A stretch of 64,000 nt of DNA from Thermomicrobiales bacterium (GCA_019637585.1 JAHBVL010000003.1:27827-91826), one strand, 5' to 3'; counted from the first letter of the stretch, positions 6,227-61,475 are shown. The notes: generated by a model from the sequence alone, not told the origin. Numbers and translations are program-made.

Positions 6227-6232
6227 CGGGGC

Positions 6233-6349
6233 GGAGTCCGAGGTCCGGAGTCCGAAGTCCGTTGTCCGTTGTCCGTTGTCCGTTGTCCGTAGAAGCTTGG
6301 TTTCCCGGCGCATGTCGCCTGCTCGGGACTTCGGACTTCGGACTTCGGG
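6233..6349. repeat. Inverted pair of heptamer arrays (ggagtcc/gaagtcc/gttgtcc x8, and ggacttc x3) forming a long hairpin just after the stop of the coiled-coil gene
   Basis: Direct reading; gaagtcc units at 6233-6290 are complementary to ggacttc units at 6326-6346; a degenerate CC-rich heptamer run continues to about 6420. Confidence 0.85.
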
Positions 6350-12719: not shown

Positions 12720-12905
12720 GTCTGAACTGACCGTGGGCGCCACAAATCGATCCGTGGCCTCGCCATTTATGGCGTTCTAAGACTTTCGTCGCGACGGCTG
12801 CCTTACATCAAACATCATTCCGAGGGAGTTCTGCGCCAACGCCTCGATACAGAGCCGTCCTCCTGTATCCTTACCGGCCCGGCGCCAGCGCGGCATGAAA
12901 AAGCA

Positions 12906-13015
12906 CTGTCATCCTGAGCGGAGCGAGGGATCTCCTGCCGCAGCAGTCTCCAGGGCGACGACGGTCGTGGCAGGAGAAGACGGAGAGATTCTTCACTTCG
13001 TTCAGAATGACGAGT
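12906..13015. repeat. Palindromic element of the gtcattccgagcgaagc family (arms gtcatcctgagcggagcgagggatctcc / rc gtcattctgaacgaagtgaagaatctctc) between convergent tatC and rqcH; half-copy at 12814-12838
   Basis: Direct reading; the arms match the 128-bp tandem units at 38277-38655. Confidence 0.7.
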
Positions 13016-16451: not shown

Positions 16452-16596
16452 GGTGCATAGTTCATAGTTGATAGTGCATAGTTGATAGTTCATAGTTCAT
16501 AGAGGTCGTTGCCGATTCCCAAGCCAGTCCCATCACCTCACGACCAACCATGCACTATCTACTATTCACTATCTACTATCTACTATCCACTACCTC
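16452..16596. repeat. Inverted pair of heptamer arrays (catagtt/gatagtt x7, then actatct x6) forming a long hairpin between the priA stop and the def start
   Basis: Direct reading of strict 7-nt periodicity; the priA stop TGA sits at the edge of the right array. Confidence 0.85.
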
Positions 16597-25984: not shown

Positions 25985-26152
25985 TCAATGGGCAATGGGG
26001 AATAGGCAAAGGGCTATGGGCAAGAGGCAAAAGGCAAAAGGCAAGAGGGAAGTGGGAGATGGGAAATAGCACACGCTCCCCTCTCCCGCGGTCGGGAGAG
26101 GGGCAGGGGGTGAGGGAAGATCGGTCGGGAGAGGGGCAGGGGGTGAGGGAAT
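25985..26152. repeat. Composite repeat (inverted copy): heptamer array gggcaat/aaaaggc (25985-26070), GC hairpin cccctctcccg-cggt-cgggagagggg, then two direct copies of tcgggagaggggcagggggtgaggga
   Basis: Direct reading; it is the reverse complement of the 48565-48727 element with few mismatches. Confidence 0.85.
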
Positions 26153-37903: not shown

Positions 37904-38281
37904 TCAGGCGGGTTTCAGCTCGTCGGGCAGCAGGGCGATACCGGCATCAGTCATCCGCCCCTCGGCGAGCAGATATCGCACGCGCTCCCGGTTGATGGCC
38001 GACCAGTTGCTTCCCGGTTTCCGAGGCACAAACCTGATCGCATAACGCCGTTCGTCGATCCCCTTGGTCTTGACATCGATCCAGCCGTGGCAGATCGCCA
38101 GATCGAGCAGCTCGTCGAAGGTCACCGTCTGCTGTTTGGAGCTCTTCTTGAAAATCTCCACCCAGATCTCGGACGCGGCCGTTCCGTGCTCGATCAGCCA
38201 GGCTTCGAACTCGGCGGCGCTGGCAATTGGTGTGGTTTGCAGTGGTTCCATCACGATCACCTCCCGCCCGTTCACCGTCAT
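37904..38281 (-). CDS. YdeI/OmpD-associated (DUF1801-like) family protein
   Basis: C-terminal core AICHGWIDVKTKGIDERRYAIRFVPRKPGSNWSAINRERV; the N-terminus of the ORF track (to 38401) is repeat-encoded, so the start is placed at 38281 (alt 38251). Confidence 0.5.
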   Translation of the reverse strand: MTVNGREVIVMEPLQTTPIASAAEFEAWLIEHGTAASEIWVEIFKKSSKQQTVTFDELLDLAICHGWIDVKTKGIDERRYAIRFVPRKPGSNWSAINRERVRYLLAEGRMTDAGIALLPDELKPA

Positions 38282-38655
38282 TCCGAGCGAAGCCGAGGAA
38301 TCTCTCGTTCGCTGCCCGTATCGTCGCGTTTGATGAGCCTCGCTGAACGGAACGAGAGATCTCTCCGCTTCGGTCGAGATGACCCGTTCGCTCGACTCCA
38401 CACTGTCATTCCGAGCGAAGCCGAGGAATCTCTCGCTCGCTACCCGTATCGTCGCGTTTGATGAGCCTCGCTGAACGGAACGAGAGATCTCTCCGCTTCG
38501 GTCGAGATGACCCGTTCGCCCGACTCCACACTGTCATTCCGAGCGAAGCCGAGGAATCTCTCGTTCACCACTCGTATCGTCGCATTTGAAGAGCCTCGCT
38601 GAACGGAACGAGAGATCTCTCCGCTTCGGTCGAGATGACAGGTGCGGTCGAGATG
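38277..38655. repeat. Three head-to-tail copies of a 128-bp palindromic unit (gtcattccgagcgaagccgaggaatctctcgttc ... gaacgagagatctctccgcttcggtcgagatgac)
   Basis: Direct reading; unit starts at 38277, 38405 and 38533; copies are more than 90% identical. Confidence 0.9.
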
Positions 38656-38659
38656 ACAC

Positions 38660-39520
38660 CTACGGCGACAGCGTGATGCCCGCAACTTCCATCGCGTTCT
38701 TGAACAGACGCAGAAACTCGAGCCCATCCGCGGGTTGGTAGGCAACAGTCCGCTCGCCAACCCGGGTGAACTCTGTCAACTTGGCCACCTGATCGGCCCG
38801 TGACTGGTGGTCGTAATCGAGCTCGATCGTGGCGCCCTCCGGCAAAGCAAAGACCCGGGCATCGCCGATCCGCTCGACCGCCAGGCGGGCGCCATCCCTG
38901 ATTCGCTGGCGGGCTACCTCTGGATGGAGGTGAATGGCCGCGGTCGTCGACAGACCCTCTTTGACCACCACGCCAACCACCTGCTCGCCGAGCAGCGCTT
39001 TGGTTTGCGCGACCGCTTTTTCGTCGCCGGAGATCATCACCACCGGCACACCAAAGTGCCCCGCCACAATCGCATTGATGCCGAATTCGCCGATCGAATC
39101 GCCATTCAGCCGAATGTCGTTGAGCGTTCTGGTCCAGGTGTGGGCCAGAGGCGCCAGGGGTGTGCCCGCCCGGGCGTGATACCCCGTGTACATGAACGCG
39201 CCCACACCTGGCAGATCGACGCCCTGTGCCATCGACAATGGCTTCTCGCCACCAGTCACGAACCGGCATCGTGGATCGAGTTCCTCGGGAATCAGGTTGC
39301 GTGCGCCGTCGTGCGAATCGCAAACGATGACTTCTTCGGCGCCCGCATCCATGGCGCCAGCGACTGCCGCATTCACCTCAGCGGTCATCCAGCCGCGCGC
39401 CCGGTTGTATTCGCTCTGATTGATCGGTTCCCCCTTGCCCGGATACTCGGGAGGCGTCACATGCATCCATGAAACGACTCCGCACGTGCCTTCCATATCG
39501 GCTGAGATAACGACCTTCAC
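38660..39520 (-). CDS. dppA: D-aminopeptidase DppA (peptidase M55)
   Basis: MKVVISADMEGTCGVV N-terminus and overall M55 signature. Confidence 0.8.
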   Translation of the reverse strand: MKVVISADMEGTCGVVSWMHVTPPEYPGKGEPINQSEYNRARGWMTAEVNAAVAGAMDAGAEEVIVCDSHDGARNLIPEELDPRCRFVTGGEKPLSMAQGVDLPGVGAFMYTGYHARAGTPLAPLAHTWTRTLNDIRLNGDSIGEFGINAIVAGHFGVPVVMISGDEKAVAQTKALLGEQVVGVVVKEGLSTTAAIHLHPEVARQRIRDGARLAVERIGDARVFALPEGATIELDYDHQSRADQVAKLTEFTRVGERTVAYQPADGLEFLRLFKNAMEVAGITLSP

Positions 39521-48564: not shown

Positions 48565-48727
48565 TCCCTCACCCCCAACCCCTCTCCCGACCGGAGATAT
48601 CCCTCACCCCCAACCCCTCTCCCGACCGCGGGAGAGGGGAGTACGTGCTATTTCCCATTTCCATTTGCTCACCGCCCATTTCCCATTTCCCATTTCCTAT
48701 TTCCCTTTACCCCTTGCCCTTTGCCTG
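48565..48727. repeat. Composite repeat (forward copy): two direct copies of tccctcacccccaacccctctcccgacc, GC hairpin cccctctcccg-accg-cgggagagggg, then heptamer array tttccca/ttgccct (48648-48727)
   Basis: Direct reading; inverted copy at 25985-26152 and a shorter copy at 61394-61475. Confidence 0.85.
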
Positions 48728-50278: not shown

Positions 50279-52354
50279 ATGCCCCGCTGGTTGCCCGAGC
50301 AAAGCCAGATCACTGCTCCAGACATCGCCTCGCGCATCGCCGGGACGCTGAATGCGCTTCGCGACCAGATCCTCCTGAGGACGGCCGGCCGGGAGAGTGC
50401 CGACCGTCGCTGGGCAACGCGGTGGATGAGCCTCTTCTGGTCGATCGCCATCGGCATCATCGCCACGCTGCTGCCGCTGAGTATCCTGGCCGTCCTCCGG
50501 CCGGCCGCCGACGCGCCAGTCGGCGCCATCCTGGCCATTGTGCTGGTGGCGCTGGTCGCGTATGTCGCCGACTGGAAGGGTGGATCGGCCAGCATTGCCG
50601 CGGCAGCCATTGTCATCTCCCGCTGGGCCGTCAAGGACGGAGCCGAACCCGAGATCGCCATGCGCTATCTCATCACCTCCCTGCTGGTCGCCGGCATCGC
50701 CATCGTCGCCCTCATCGAACGACTCAAAACCGAGGGATCGATCGACCGCCAGGAAGCGCTTGCCGCGCGGTCCGCGGCCACGGCCTTGGCAGCCGTCGAA
50801 ACGGTAGCCGCAACCCACCAGAAACTCAGCCCCGACGCCCGCACCCAGCTTCATCACGCCATTGTGCGCTCAGTCGTCGGCGTCAACCGGGCGCATGCGG
50901 GCGCTCTCGTGCTGGCCGATCCGGAATCGGGAGATCTCGAACCCGCCGCCCTGTATGGCTTCGGCGCCAACGCGGAAGAGGCCCTGCGGGCAGACGCCGC
51001 GACCGATGACGGATTCGTCGCCCGGATACGTCAGGAACGGCGCACCCTTCAGCTGAGCGGTATTCAGCGCACGTCCGGCGATCGCTACGCGGGAGTGCGC
51101 CGCACCCGCGTGAAGTCGATGCTCGGCTCGCCGGTGATCTCGCAGGACGACATGGTCCTCGGCGTCATTCTGGTCGGGTTGCTCGTCGATCATCATTTCA
51201 CCCCCCGTGAAGTCCGCAAACTCGATGCGCTGGCGTCGCAGGTCGCCTCGATTCTGGAAACGATGAGCGTCATGGACCGGCGGGAGTTCCAGCTGCAACA
51301 GGCCCAGGACGAGCAACGCCGGTTGGAGCAGGTCATCGCCACCGTACCGGAAGCGTTGATCGTTTCGGCCCCTCCGTCCGGGGAGATCATCGCCATGAAC
51401 GAAGCTGCTCAGGAGCTCTTCCGCGGCGTCGACTCCGGATCGATCCTGCTCAGCGTCAAACCGGTCGACACCGACGACAGCATCCTCTCCCCCACCGAGC
51501 GGGCGCTGACCTTCGGTGAGAGCGCAAATGATGTGGAGTGCCTGATCGAGCGGTCCGAAACCGACAAAATCCCGGTCCTGGCGAGCGCCGCGCCTATTCG
51601 CGATGACGAAGGAACAGTGGTCGCTGTCGTCTCGGCGTTCCGAGATATCAGCGCGCTCAAGGAAGCGGCGAGATTGAAGGACGAATTCGTCTCCGTCGTC
51701 TCGCACGAGCTCCGCTCGCCTCTGACCCCCATCCGGGGTTTCGTACAGCTCGTCGCACGTGACCTCTCCCGTGAGGGTGGGCACGATACGCAGGTGCACC
51801 GGCTCGAATCGGTTTCGGGACACGTCGACCGGCTCACCCGCCTCGTCGACGATCTCCTCGATGTCTCACGGCTCCGGTCCGGGACGCTGGAAATCCGCCC
51901 GGTTCCGACTGACCTCGTCGACCTGACGAAAAAAGTGGTCGAGGCCTGGGCAGGTGGCACGTCTCCCGTGGCCATCACACTGGAATCCGATGAAACGTCG
52001 CTGGAGGGCCATTGGGATCCCGACCGGATTCACCAGGTGCTCGACAATCTGGTGATCAACGCCGTCAAGTACAGCCCACCGGGCGCCGCGGTGGTCATGT
52101 CACTCTCGCGCGAGGAAAACGCAGCGGTGATCGGCGTGAAGGACCAGGGACCAGGTATCGACGACGTCCAGAAAGCCGAAATCTTCGGCGCTTTCTATCG
52201 AACCCCCGATGCTCGCGAGGGTCAGGTTCAGGGTCTGGGTCTGGGACTCTTCATCTGCCAGGCGCTCGTCGCCGAACACGGCGGCTCGATCGATCTGGTA
52301 TCAGCTCCGGGAGAAGGTTCGACGTTTATCGTCAGGTTGCCGACTAGTGCATAG
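50279..52354 (+). CDS. Sensor histidine kinase (TM, GAF, PAS, HisKA, HATPase_c)
   Basis: N-terminal TM helices, GAF-like and PAS-like regions, H-box SHELRSPL, then N/G1/G2 boxes (NAVKYS, DQGPGI, GLGLGL). Confidence 0.8.
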   Translation: MPRWLPEQSQITAPDIASRIAGTLNALRDQILLRTAGRESADRRWATRWMSLFWSIAIGIIATLLPLSILAVLRPAADAPVGAILAIVLVALVAYVADWKGGSASIAAAAIVISRWAVKDGAEPEIAMRYLITSLLVAGIAIVALIERLKTEGSIDRQEALAARSAATALAAVETVAATHQKLSPDARTQLHHAIVRSVVGVNRAHAGALVLADPESGDLEPAALYGFGANAEEALRADAATDDGFVARIRQERRTLQLSGIQRTSGDRYAGVRRTRVKSMLGSPVISQDDMVLGVILVGLLVDHHFTPREVRKLDALASQVASILETMSVMDRREFQLQQAQDEQRRLEQVIATVPEALIVSAPPSGEIIAMNEAAQELFRGVDSGSILLSVKPVDTDDSILSPTERALTFGESANDVECLIERSETDKIPVLASAAPIRDDEGTVVAVVSAFRDISALKEAARLKDEFVSVVSHELRSPLTPIRGFVQLVARDLSREGGHDTQVHRLESVSGHVDRLTRLVDDLLDVSRLRSGTLEIRPVPTDLVDLTKKVVEAWAGGTSPVAITLESDETSLEGHWDPDRIHQVLDNLVINAVKYSPPGAAVVMSLSREENAAVIGVKDQGPGIDDVQKAEIFGAFYRTPDAREGQVQGLGLGLFICQALVAEHGGSIDLVSAPGEGSTFIVRLPTSA

Positions 52355-52478
52355 TTGATAGTGCATAGTTGATAGTGCATAGTTCATAGCAGATAGTTGA
52401 TAGTGCGTGGTAGCTGCTCGACGGACGCAATCTATCGACCATCAACTATCGACTATCGACTATGAACTATGAACTACC
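52347..52478. repeat. Inverted pair of heptamer arrays (catagtt/gatagtg x8, and rc units aactatc/gactatc/gaactat x6) between convergent genes; the stop codons of both flanking genes lie inside the arrays
   Basis: Direct reading; same heptamer family as 16452-16596. Confidence 0.85.
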
Positions 52479-54498
52479 GATACCTCACCCGACTCGGCAT
52501 CGGGCGCCGCACGGGGATCATCCGGGTCTTGCGCCTCGACAATCCCTGCGAGATCAGCAGTCCGGCTGAGATGAGCGCAATCAGCGCCAGGAGACCGACG
52601 AGGAAGGGGTTGTACGAGCGGGTCGATCCAACCACCATCGGCGCGGGAACTCCCACCACATAGCGTGAAAGCTCGGTGACCTCGGTCGTGACGCTCCCCT
52701 GATCGGCATCGACGACTGGCATCAGCTTGGCCATCGCTCCATCGATGCGATAGATCCTGGCCGAGGGGTCGGAGCTTGCGGAGTCGAGGGCGATTGTGAG
52801 TTGCGCGGGAGCCGTCAGCGGCTCGGCGGCGGTTCCGTCCGCTGCACTGAACGCCACATCGAACGCGGTTCCCGGTACGAGCGTCACCCCATTGATCGCG
52901 GGAAGATCGTGATCGGCGATCGGTTTCAGCATCACGGTCGTCTGGTCGACCAGCGCACCCTGCGGCACGATGATCCGGGCCCCAGCGGGATTCTCCAGAA
53001 CACCACCAGGACTGCCCATCGAGAGGGCCACGATACCGTCGGCGCCAGTCGCTGGTCCGAGATCGGCTTCGGCGGCCGCGTTGGCCTTGGCGGCCGAATC
53101 CTGAGCGCTCGCCGCCGACGCGACGGTCACATCGCCGCTCTCCGCGACGGCCGACTGAATGCCATACCCATAGTCAGGAGCATTCGCCTCCGGTCCGCCG
53201 CTGGCGTCGCCAGAGAAACCGGACGGATTGGCAATCGCCCGCAACACGACCGATGGATCGACGCCAACGACGCCGGTGCCGTCTCCCATCAACCCACTGT
53301 CGATCTCTTCGGCGGCAGCCTCGTCGACATTGCCATCGACGTCTTCGGTGACGGCATCGACCGCGCATTCGTCGAGGAAGGTGTCGCTCATATCGAAAAC
53401 AGAGAGGTAGTAGGTACCCGGTTCATCCGGAGCCAGCCACCCGAGGACCGCCGATGAGTTCCGGGAGAGCGTGCCTCCCAGGTTGGCATCTCCCTCGGCA
53501 GTCGTATCGAACCCCGTGTTTGGCGATTCCGCCGGGAAGAGCCCGCCGGAGGCCACAACCACCATCGAGCCGCTGCCGGAAAGCACGATCTGCCCACGAT
53601 GCCCGATGGTGACCGCAGGCGGGCACTCCAGGGTCGCTTCGACACTCTCCCCTTCGGAAAGGAACCCCTCCAGGTAGGTGCTGGAACTGCCCAGCTCAGC
53701 GCCGGATTCGGGGTCGTACGCCACAAAGTAGATCTTCGCGTCCGATTCGTACTGCGGGGCAACCCAGTCGGTTGTGCCCCCCGCTTCAAGGATGACGGTG
53801 TTCTCGCCCGTTGCCGTGAAGTACCCATCCTGCGCCGTCAGCAGCACGTTTCCTTCGCCAGTGACGCCGATCGCGGCAGTCTGGCCGGACTGGACGGTGG
53901 CCGGAGCGCCGATCGTCACCGAGCGGCCCGAGGGCACATCGACCGGGCCGCCGTTTCCTTCGTTGCTGCCGGATGCCGGCGGCGTGACCAACACCAGACT
54001 ATTGGCCAGCGACAGCGAATCCGAACCGGTCATATTCTGGCTGTCGACCGTGTAGACCACGTTGCCGATCTTCCAGTAGACGAGATCGTAAGCCGGGGTC
54101 TGATCGCGCCACGCCGGGTAACCCATCACGGTGGCGTTCTGCTGCAGTTGGTTGTTTCGGTCGTAGATCGAGTAAGCCGGAATCGTGCCGCCCGCTTCAC
54201 CCGCCACCCGTAAATAGGTGACCGGGGCGCCGGGAATCAGCCAGTAGAAGCTGTAGAAACCGCTGTACGCCTGAATCTCCGGCTCACCACCGAACGGGGA
54301 AGGAATCCAGGAGGGCGCATAGACATTGATGCCTACGGCGAGTCTCGACGCCGACCCCGAGCTCAGCCAGTCGGGATTCTGCGCGGACTGAAATGCGCCG
54401 GATTGCGGCTGATTTGGCGCCGCCAGAAGCGTTCCGGGAGTTCCCAGCAGAATCAGCGCCGCGCAAAGGAGTACGAGCCAGCGGTGACGGAAGTTCAT
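52474..54498 (-). CDS. Large secreted/cell-surface protein of unknown function (signal peptide plus C-terminal TM anchor)
   Basis: 674-aa ORF; N-terminal signal MNFRHRWLVLLCAALILLGTPGTLLAAP; Gly/Ser/Thr/Ala/Val-rich beta-like body; C-terminal hydrophobic helix followed by RRKTR. Confidence 0.55.
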   Translation of the reverse strand: MNFRHRWLVLLCAALILLGTPGTLLAAPNQPQSGAFQSAQNPDWLSSGSASRLAVGINVYAPSWIPSPFGGEPEIQAYSGFYSFYWLIPGAPVTYLRVAGEAGGTIPAYSIYDRNNQLQQNATVMGYPAWRDQTPAYDLVYWKIGNVVYTVDSQNMTGSDSLSLANSLVLVTPPASGSNEGNGGPVDVPSGRSVTIGAPATVQSGQTAAIGVTGEGNVLLTAQDGYFTATGENTVILEAGGTTDWVAPQYESDAKIYFVAYDPESGAELGSSSTYLEGFLSEGESVEATLECPPAVTIGHRGQIVLSGSGSMVVVASGGLFPAESPNTGFDTTAEGDANLGGTLSRNSSAVLGWLAPDEPGTYYLSVFDMSDTFLDECAVDAVTEDVDGNVDEAAAEEIDSGLMGDGTGVVGVDPSVVLRAIANPSGFSGDASGGPEANAPDYGYGIQSAVAESGDVTVASAASAQDSAAKANAAAEADLGPATGADGIVALSMGSPGGVLENPAGARIIVPQGALVDQTTVMLKPIADHDLPAINGVTLVPGTAFDVAFSAADGTAAEPLTAPAQLTIALDSASSDPSARIYRIDGAMAKLMPVVDADQGSVTTEVTELSRYVVGVPAPMVVGSTRSYNPFLVGLLALIALISAGLLISQGLSRRKTRMIPVRRPMPSRVRYR

Positions 54499-61131: not shown

Positions 61132-61475
61132 TCGTCATTCCGGCGCCTTTTCTTCGCCATTTCTCCCCCACCCCTTTCGTCATTCCGACCGAAGCGTGTG
61201 TGTACCGGATACATAGGTAACACTTGTGCGGAGAGATGGGTGACACAGCATTTGCCATGCTTGGGATCCGACGAGGGTACCGAGGAGGAATCTCTCGTTC
61301 GGGCCTGGCCACGCCGCAAATCGCCAACCCGGCCTACCCCAACGAGAGGTCCCTCGACCCGGCTCGGGATGATGGTGTGATTGGGGGTGGAGAATCCCTC
61401 ACCCCGGCCCCGCTCCCGACCGCGGGAGAGGGGAGACCGTTTCCATTTCCTATCCCCTATTTCCCATCACCCCAC
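61132..61475. repeat. Repeat-dense divergent intergenic region: degenerate gtcattccga... copies (61132-61208, 61280-61303), the shorter composite C-box/GC-hairpin element (61394-61434) and a tttccat heptamer run (61438-61475)
   Basis: Direct reading; motifs shared with 38277-38655 and 48565-48727. Confidence 0.7.

Follow-up and report, generated by a model that had tools for sequence, protein, structure and literature searches.

The window analyzed here, a stretch of 64,000 nucleotides from a metagenome-assembled genome (MAG) of a Thermomicrobiales bacterium (Chloroflexota; GCA_019637585.1, JAHBVL010000003.1:27827-91826), carries a short array of repeats in the gap between two minus-strand genes, and the question that this locus raises is what kind of element these repeats represent, whether they act at the level of DNA or RNA, and how the array came about. 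The array occupies nearly all of the gap between a dppA-like gene and a gene for a protein of 115 amino acids (aa), and consists of the following parts (coordinates are those of the window):

38273-38400, unstranded: array unit 1 (128 nt), comprising left arm, 55-nt interior, right arm and 21-nt linker (Tandem Repeats Finder, repeat search)
38401-38528, unstranded: array unit 2, 97% identical to unit 1
38529-38639, unstranded: array unit 3, 94% identical to unit 1 across 107 nt
38277-38302, plus strand: left-arm hairpin GTCAT-TCC-GA-GC-GAA-G(C)C-GA-GGA-ATC (covariance model R1, 32.1 bits, E 7e-5 for each copy)
38358-38383, minus strand: right-arm hairpin GTCAT-CTC-GA-CC-GAA-G(C)G-GA-GAG-ATC (model R1, 27.3 bits, E 7e-4 for each copy)
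38384-38404, unstranded: 21-nt non-palindromic linker between back-to-back arms, CCGTTCGCTCGACTCCACACT (from the sequence)
38646-38657, minus strand: truncated copy of the outer end of the right arm, GTCATCTCGACC on the minus strand (from the sequence)
38660-39520, minus strand: dppA-like gene for an M55 D-aminopeptidase, with the stop codon abutting the array (Pfam PF04951, Peptidase_M55, E 6e-89)
37904-38251, minus strand: gene for the 115-aa protein (DUF8412-type) downstream of the array (from the ORF list; orthologs carry PF28474)

The repeat array and its neighborhood

The array spans positions 38273-38639, with a period of 128 nt, 2.9 copies, 95% matches, no indels and a score of 671 (Tandem Repeats Finder), in full agreement with the original prediction, made from the sequence alone, of a tandem triplication of a 128-bp unit. 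In a repeat search, the in-register copies start at 38273, 38401 and 38529 and show 100%, 97% and 88% identity to the first one, respectively; the mismatches between units 3 and 1 are confined to the interior spacer. The 30-mer that had been proposed as a search probe occurs exactly three times in the window, compared to zero occurrences in 100 shuffled sequences. The inverted arms of the unit are 34–36 nt long, which is compatible with the roughly 34 bp predicted, and 82–83% complementary, but they are separated by 39 nt rather than by the predicted 50-nt spacer. The second copy of the linker, at 38512-38532, differs in one base from that at 38384-38404, and the truncated arm copy at 38646-38657 follows the last full arm at a distance of 6 nt and the dppA stop codon at a distance of 2 nt. 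The three copies of the unit, an inverted hairpin pair, are arranged head to tail in a clean and recent triplication, and the array represents a real, recent, non-coding insertion.

Identical copies of the left arm are located at 38405-38430 and 38533-38558, and those of the right arm at 38486-38511 and 38614-38639. The left and right arms differ at six positions, all of them compensatory inside the respective hairpin (TCC/GGA versus CTC/GAG, and G...C versus C...G). Because these differences are compensated within each arm, the unit is not a single imperfect palindrome, as originally described, but a convergent pair of two separate 26-nt hairpins, with GTCAT outermost. When run over the 64 kb, model R1 detects exactly eight arms above noise: the six in the array and two others, at 12908-12932 (plus strand) and 12987-13011 (minus strand). 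All eight intact arms begin with GTCAT, and all window arms end with ...AT-C, that is, with a C directly after the palindrome; the arms of the array have the 26-nt form, with a bulged pyrimidine between G and N' (see the consensus below). The nearest-neighbor energies show that single arms are not unusually stable compared to shuffled sequences (z from -0.3 to +1.2), so that the case for the arm hairpin rests on covariation. As single-stranded DNA (ssDNA), unit 1 folds into a long hairpin (-27.8 kcal/mol, z -2.4), better than the shuffled sequences, and the RNA folding suggested along with the original prediction yields, for each unit, a hairpin of about -50 kcal/mol on either strand.

Two other copies of the doublet are present in the window:

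12908-13011, unstranded: single convergent doublet of the same hairpin family, in the canonical 25-nt form (model R1, 36.3 and 41.2 bits)
61178-61375, unstranded: decayed doublet belonging to the subfamily of the array, with no intact hairpin recognized by R1

The first of these confirms the predicted relative at 12906-13015, with the two R1 arms given above, but assigns it to a subfamily other than that of the array, without the bulged base; it sits between the convergent 3' ends of TatC-like and NFACT-like genes. The degenerate relative predicted at 61132-61303 is real as well (17-nt exact match at 61285-61301, E 4e-4), but its extent had to be redrawn, to 61178-61375: about 88 nt interrupt the left arm, mutations in the right arm have hit critical positions, namely the G of GTCAT and the ATC, and a truncated end copy is found nearby, at 61133-61142. 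A further proposed relative, at 12814-12838, is only a 10-nt match at the chance level (E 5.7) and was discarded.

DppA has a 100% identical counterpart in a Thermomicrobiales MAG, and the identification of dppA as one of the neighbors holds; the other neighbor, previously taken for a DUF1801 gene, encodes the 115-aa protein, which produced no significant match in the copy of Pfam searched but has orthologs with a precomputed match to PF28474 (DUF8412). The ribosome-binding site of this gene, GGGAGGT at 38259-38265, begins 8 nt after the left edge of the array (38273), and the 165-aa ORF that enters the array is an annotation artefact in which the 115-aa gene is falsely extended. The loci with 91, 89, 83 and 81% identical DppA retain the gene order amine oxidase, dppA, the 115-aa DUF8412 gene, a 305-aa gene and acetyl-CoA synthetase, and in none of them is there an arm downstream of dppA. 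The gap between dppA and the next gene amounts to 15 nt in one of the relatives (L328) and to 119 nt of unrelated sequence in two others (L326 and L327), compared to 408 nt in the window. Judging from these comparisons, the insertion and triplication at the dppA site are lineage-specific, given that the orthologous site is empty in relatives, and recent, given the 97% identity between units 1 and 2. A clean insertion with defined ends or a target-site duplication was not found, and no target-site duplication is definable because the intergenic sequence of the relatives is too diverged to fix the empty site base by base.

Tandem-GA hairpins, Ssn-related motifs and GIY-YIG genes

Covariation was assessed with 95 distinct 25-mers that had been gathered without demanding pairing. 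Standard base pairs occupy 93.5% of the cells, compared to 75.6% in shuffles (none of the 500 shuffles reached 93.5%) and 19–53% when the partners were slid; double-sided changes number 144 against 43 expected, and all five free pairs covary, supporting a 7-bp interrupted helix. The consensus of the family is (T)GTC-AT-NNN-GA-[NC-GNA-GN' or longer stem-loop]-GA-N'N'N'-AT-C(T), where the GTC 5' of the stem and the C 3' of the stem are invariant, with the reservation that, across the loci, the 3' C was fixed by the search pattern, so that its conservation there is not independent evidence. When the pattern GTCATNNNGANCGNAGNGANNNATC was searched for in viral contigs, all four N pairs were complementary in 135 of the 156 matches listed, compared to about 2% by chance. 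A T precedes the motif (position -1) in 116 of 137 instances, so that the doublet ends are T-GTCAT...ATGAC-A. Convergent doublets of 56–184 nt dominate among the close pairs of arms (62 of 89). Doublets without a gene, located in short intergenic gaps, are the commonest form, and gene-dense loci carry doublets in one such gap after another.

The exact 26-mer of the left arm is found in at least about 16 phyla among the matches listed in the genome collection, with the phyla assigned by record titles: Chloroflexota, Bacteroidota, Rhodothermota, Verrucomicrobiota, Planctomycetota, Acidobacteriota, Bacillota, Actinomycetota, Cyanobacteriota, Pseudomonadota, Bdellovibrionota, Nitrospirota, Armatimonadota, Omnitrophota, Binatota and Patescibacteria. 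The presence of the identical 26-mer in such a range of phyla indicates that the hairpin family is not limited to one lineage. A BLAST search of plasmids with one array unit or with the 12.9 kb doublet yielded no matches; among GenBank phages, the consensus doublet produced chance matches in BLAST, with the exception of one unannotated fecal scaffold that carries a true doublet. A text search of the literature for the motif, in both strands and as RNA, returned unrelated primer matches only.

The array is not a new kind of element: its hairpins belong to the class of Ssn-related motifs (SRM) described in 2025, as a tandem-GA structural variant that goes undetected by the published search string. 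The SRMs are a generalization of the Neisseria repeats NTS (CGTCATTCCCGCGMAVGCGGGAATCYRG) and NTSvar (CGTCATACTCGGGNNNNNCCCGAGTATC), and are characterized by an oriented (H)GTCWY directly before the palindrome and a 20–50-nt inverted repeat (Chenal et al., Nat Commun 2025, PMC11893778). The SRMs border genes that encode single-domain GIY-YIG proteins of about 94 aa (cd10448), and the NTS-ssnA-NTS layout has been likened by the authors to an insertion sequence and to REP/BIME (PMC11893778). SsnA binds the hairpin in ssDNA only, and only in the GTCAT strand, and cuts a few nucleotides upstream; double-stranded DNA and RNA are excluded as substrates, RNA not being bound. Mutagenesis has shown that the three nucleotides 5' of the palindrome are required for cleavage and the C after the palindrome for binding, with loop changes and extensions tolerated; binding and cutting were demonstrated for the homologs from Neisseria, N. 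elongata, N. wadsworthii and Wolbachia, and only these four proteobacterial homologs were assayed (PMC11893778). The window arms have the identical frame, GTCAT followed by a hairpin and ATC, and their GTC and 3' C are the very positions that are critical for cleavage and binding in the SsnA work. The subfamily also shares with the SRMs the directional motif, numerous intergenic copies and presence in many phyla, and its copies flank a gene for a single-domain GIY-YIG protein (~95 aa) in the same manner as in NTS-ssnA-NTS. There are differences, too: whereas the stem of NTS is a continuous TCCCGCG/CGCGGGA palindrome, the stem of the window hairpin is interrupted and consists of a 5-bp outer stem, a tandem GA/GA internal loop, a 2-bp inner stem and a GNA triloop (plus the bulged pyrimidine); furthermore, the array resides in a Thermomicrobiales MAG whereas the assayed Ssn homologs are all proteobacterial. 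The published SRM string, HGTCWYN(0-2)YYVSBRHN(0-5)WNVSBRGN(0-2)RNCYNB, is an operational search tool derived from 29 genomes rather than a functional definition; it does match the NTS and NTSvar controls, and it matches none of the 399 tandem-GA instances, none of the window arms and none of the flanks of the 80 loci considered next.

Unbiased clustering of the ORFs located near the motif in phylogenetically scattered loci delineates a family of ~100-aa GIY-YIG proteins (PF01541, E 1e-12 to 1e-17), which are 93–119 aa long and single-domain, with the PF01541 match covering positions 2–76 of the 78-position profile. In one locus (L237), a plus-strand arm is followed, after 68 nt, by the gene and, after another 25 nt, by a minus-strand arm; the respective distances in a second locus (L147) are 36 and 55 nt; in a Saccharibacteria locus (L178), the entire arm-gene-arm unit is 338 bp long, and three more loci (L216, L235 and L131) show similar layouts. 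Because these first loci had been chosen for carrying the motif, a second set of 80 metagenome loci was picked by homology to Ssn-like proteins alone. In 47 of these 80 loci, a tandem-GA arm (strict definition) is located within 200 nt of the gene, and in 28, on both sides of it, against a chance expectation of about 1e-4 per locus. The density of arms per kb drops about 20-fold with distance, from 3.19 within 200 nt to 0.54 at 200–500 nt and 0.16 beyond 500 nt. Among the two-sided loci, the convergent layout is the commonest (15 of 28), and the units are 348–549 bp long. The subfamily brackets ~95–120-aa single-domain GIY-YIG genes as arm-gene-arm units of ~340–550 bp.

The protein clade is very large, with 7,999 of the 8,000 scored candidate proteins at E<=1e-10, and those of its members that have names stem from the taxa in which the 26-mer is found, including Hymenobacter, Abditibacterium, Nitrospirae, Verrucomicrobia, Acidobacteria, Patescibacteria and cyanobacteria. 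The nearest solved structures are those of the UPF0213 proteins 1zg2 and 1ywl (E 8e-11 and 2e-9), and no NCBIfam model matches the Ssn-like proteins. The Ssn-like GIY-YIG proteins associated with the motif may belong to cd10448 itself or to a neighboring GIY-YIG clade. The 64-kb window contains no ssn-like ORF (hmmsearch --max, best E 1.3). We consider it quite likely that the array consists of three tandem copies of a non-autonomous SRM-class hairpin doublet of the tandem-GA variant, that the region is nickable by a cognate Ssn-like nuclease, and that the array grew by slippage or recombination; we infer the mechanism at the dppA-DUF8412 locus from that of the Ssn homologs elsewhere.

Possible RNA-level roles and other classes of elements

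The primary role of the array could lie instead at the RNA level, as a stabilizer, attenuator or processing site in the dppA-DUF8412 transcript, with the array being selected for this effect. The REPs and BIMEs of E. coli are known for such transcript-level effects; the dppA and DUF8412 genes are co-directional and, in the relatives, only 15–119 nt apart, and hence probably co-transcribed; and each unit, read from either strand, gives the RNA hairpin described above. However, the hairpins show no strand bias relative to genes, with single arms splitting 30 versus 26 between the two orientations to the flanking genes in viral loci and 10 versus 14 in genome loci. Pyrimidines prevail in the 5' flank on the motif strand and purines 3' of the doublet, a composition opposite to that of an intrinsic terminator; there is no U-tract, and the array contains no terminator-like or promoter-like site. 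There is no match to an Rfam family either: a scan of the whole window with gathering thresholds recovers one tRNA only, and an E-value scan of the array returns only microRNA noise. Furthermore, SsnA does not bind RNA (PMC11893778), and the site is empty in the relatives, so that the operon does not need the element. An RNA-level primary role thus appears unlikely, whereas the strand neutrality, the composition of the flanks and the missing terminator and promoter sites fit a role at the DNA level; an RNA-level side effect of the array is nonetheless likely.

Besides the SRM-class doublet, another DNA-level identity that has to be weighed is that of a classical REP/REPIN, that is, of hairpins that are recognized and moved by a Y1 HUH transposase and clustered as BIME. 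The combination of a 5' tag with a hairpin, the inverted doublets, the intergenic placement and the mosaic arrays are all REP-like, and the logic is common to REP/BIME/REPIN systems with RAYT (TnpA_REP): an ssDNA hairpin with a tag, amplification in units of inverted doublets, a single gene for a trans-acting nuclease flanked by its own repeats, and mosaic clusters. The similarity extends to the hairpins flanking class 3 TnpA_Y1, which have the same stem-GA-stem-loop-GA-stem design, for example, CCGC-GA-CC-GTAA-GG-GA-GCGG. The latter hairpins, with a CnGA foot and about 600 copies in Solibacter usitatus (Quentin et al. 2018, PMC6006769), are built like the window hairpin from an outer stem, tandem GA, a 2-bp stem and a G-N-(N)-A loop but differ from it in the sequence, the 5' tag and the associated protein; a common preference for a fold that is compact and stable in ssDNA may account for the likeness. 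The REP and RAYT systems employ an HUH-Y1 enzyme, as opposed to a GIY-YIG protein, and a GTAG or CGTC tag, as opposed to GTCAT; the hairpins analyzed here lack a GT[AG]G or CGTC tag at their foot, and the curated table of REPs does not contain the motif (Quentin et al. 2018, PMC6006769). In about 1.9 Mb of motif-bearing loci, there is a single HUH-Y1 ORF, which is 4 kb away from the motif and comes with its own GTGG REP doublets; the motif tightly brackets GIY-YIG genes instead. A REP/REPIN identity is therefore highly unlikely and can be regarded as largely refuted. Of the original description of the units as MITE-like and REP/BIME-like, the dispersed, REP/BIME-like behavior is borne out, but a classical MITE or a RAYT-type REP, for lack of the GTAG/CGTC tag and of an adjoining Y1 transposase, is not.

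The classical MITE would be a derivative of an insertion sequence with a DDE transposase and terminal repeats TGTCAT...ATGACA. The ends of the doublet do recall TG...CA termini, and the size and intergenic location agree with this reading, but single arms are common and look functional by themselves, and the internal hairpin shows compensatory changes that are not predicted by double-strand recognition of terminal repeats. Moreover, the protein encoded between the arms is a GIY-YIG nuclease rather than a DDE transposase and, subject to the divergence of the relatives' intergenic sequence noted above, no target-site duplication is seen. All this makes a conventional MITE extremely unlikely. Finally, that the units encode a real repeated peptide is a virtually negligible option: although ORFs of 41–43 aa recur with the units, they do so on both strands and in several frames, with nothing in Pfam or NCBIfam matching at E<=1, the sequence varies by base-pair covariation and the element is missing from the orthologous loci, in accord with the original assessment of the array as non-coding and of its false ORFs as an annotation trap.

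Amplification of the doublets

If the array is composed of SRM-class doublets, as we favor, a doublet would have reached this lineage as a derivative of an arm-ssn-arm unit and, together with the 21-nt linker, would have been amplified to three copies by replication slippage or unequal recombination between arm copies. Whenever the region becomes single-stranded, during replication, DNA uptake or transfer, each arm would fold, and a cognate Ssn-like nuclease encoded elsewhere in the genome would nick the linkers and the outer flanks; by analogy with SsnA (PMC11893778), the predicted ssDNA cut sites of adjoining arms fall in the linker. Because the arms face both ways, either strand would be cuttable. 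As a side effect, the dppA-DUF8412 intergenic transcript would contain three long hairpins, and gene callers produce false ORFs.

Slippage or unequal recombination is the most likely route of growth. Because the non-palindromic 21-nt linker was copied along with the doublet, duplication of a segment is favored over three separate insertions; the array looks like a duplication, and of the two origins originally proposed, serial insertion is disfavored. A comparable event is apparent in two near-identical contigs (L053 and L017), which differ by 161 nt containing two extra arms. This indel, the only one found, is bounded by a 23-nt direct repeat that consists of an arm end and its flank, a hallmark of slippage or unequal recombination between copies of the arm. 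The mosaic arrays around an ssn-like gene in another locus (L280, see below) point the same way. Across the loci, truncated outer-end copies located 20–29 nt outside full arms are enriched 8-fold (39 observed against about 5 expected). It is conceivable, although we would put this forward only tentatively, that the tandem-GA arm-ssn-arm unit (~340–550 bp) is a tiny mobile element, active and autonomous, that is driven by a GIY-YIG ssDNA nuclease and perhaps represents the most widespread SRM class of all (~16 phyla, CPR bacteria among them, as well as phage contigs), that the gene-less doublets, those in the window included, are its MITE-like derivatives, and that the truncated end copies, such as that at 38646-38657, are footprints of cuts 5' of GTCAT followed by faulty repair or re-copying, which would seed arrays.

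The tandem-GA family bears on genome annotation, being common in many phyla and MAGs and giving rise to short false ORFs and false N-terminal extensions, such as that from 115 to 165 aa here; a covariance model such as R1 would flag these. As the string misses the tandem-GA class, the published SRM counts are probably underestimates, and the same holds for the list of genomes reported to lack SRMs. This class presents a distinct substrate architecture for a nuclease family that is being developed as site-specific ssDNA tools. At the dppA locus, the array puts six oriented potential ssDNA nick sites between two genes, and the filled versus empty orthologous sites, along with the three-copy array, show that the gain and amplification of such elements is ongoing in Chloroflexota.

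Elsewhere, doublets are rarely arranged in tandem: one locus (L119) has a 72-nt period with 2.1 copies, and another (L280) has periods of 128 nt with 1.9 copies and 89 nt with 6.3 copies, in mosaic arrays to either side of an ssn-like gene. Neisseria intergenic mosaic elements (NIMEs) are arrays of 50–150-bp RS units bounded by dRS3/NTS inverted repeats. Like the array in the window, NIMEs consist of short intergenic units delimited by inverted copies of one hairpin-forming repeat (dRS3 and NTS as described in PMC11893778), and mosaics of this kind are seen in L280; in contrast, NIMEs are mosaics of different RS units, whereas the array analyzed here is a single unit repeated, in a different phylum and with a different hairpin subfamily.

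Arm organization in phage contigs and mosaic arrays

In three viral contigs (L035, L045 and L083), nearly every intergenic gap holds a single copy of the GTCAT...ATC hairpin (arm), and within each contig all arms share one orientation. This arrangement suggests that the arms are linked with the direction in which the DNA is replicated or packaged, and not with particular genes. Two other viral contigs, L053 (3100-3260) and L017 (8300-8325), are near-identical and are distinguished by a 161-nt segment that holds two additional arms, both in the same orientation; a 23-nt direct repeat comprising an arm end and its flank marks the borders of this segment. Among the loci examined, the clearest NIME-/BIME-like cluster outside Neisseria is the mosaic of arm arrays at locus L280 (1060-2337), with 1.9 copies of a 128-nt unit on one side of a gene for a small GIY-YIG protein (ssn-like; 1340-1621) and 6.3 copies of an 89-nt unit on the other.

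Shortened copies outside full arms

At many loci, for example, L045, L068, L153, L157 and L164, a shortened copy of the hairpin's outer end (GTCATNNNGA...) lies 20-29 nt outside a full arm (39 observed, compared with about 5 expected). A pyrimidine-rich spacer follows these copies, which at times stack in twos or threes; nuclease cleavage immediately 5' of GTCAT may have left them as footprints. The window contains two:
38646-38657, shortened outer-end copy
61133-61142, shortened outer-end copy

A REPtron and an apparently truncated ssn-like ORF

Contig L048, classified as viral, contains a textbook REPtron (1040-1860), in which a RAYT-like gene (NHVH...YIERNP) is flanked on either side by inverted doublets of GTGG-tagged REPs; a GTCAT-hairpin doublet lies 4 kb away. 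At L160 (7707-7967), an ssn-like ORF is apparently cut short by a GTCAT-type repeat of another kind. The translation downstream includes ...SRFRGNDM, typical of the GTCATTCCCGC...GCGGGAATC class, which resembles NTS, the Neisseria repeat cut by SsnA; this suggests that distinct hairpin subfamilies may coexist and insert into one another's units.

Other repeats and the 115-aa gene of the window

A second dispersed family in the window, a G/C-tract hairpin reading CCCTCACCCC..CCCCTCTCCC-GACCGC-GGGAGAGGGG to which arrays of heptamers are attached (ATTTCCC, or its CAATGGG-like complement), occupies three loci, one copy immediately adjoining the decayed pair of GTCAT hairpins located at 61.3 kb. 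Further intergenic heptamer arrays are reminiscent of the cyanobacterial STRR heptamers; several form inverted pairs with about 50 nt between the partners, such as (CATAGTT)n with (CACTATC)n and (GTCCGTT)n with (GGACTTC)n.

Additional features of the window
25986-26151, G/C-tract hairpin and heptamer array
48579-48705, G/C-tract hairpin and heptamer array
61395-61470, G/C-tract hairpin and heptamer array
2002-2076, heptamer array
6232-6348, heptamer array
16456-16592, heptamer array
52345-52480, heptamer array
37904-38251, 115-aa gene, downstream of the tandem doublet array

The DUF1801 label originally given to the 115-aa gene is unsupported: the search against the Pfam copy used yielded no significant match (the best was Ish1, E 0.17), and its orthologues carry a precomputed match to PF28474 (DUF8412).
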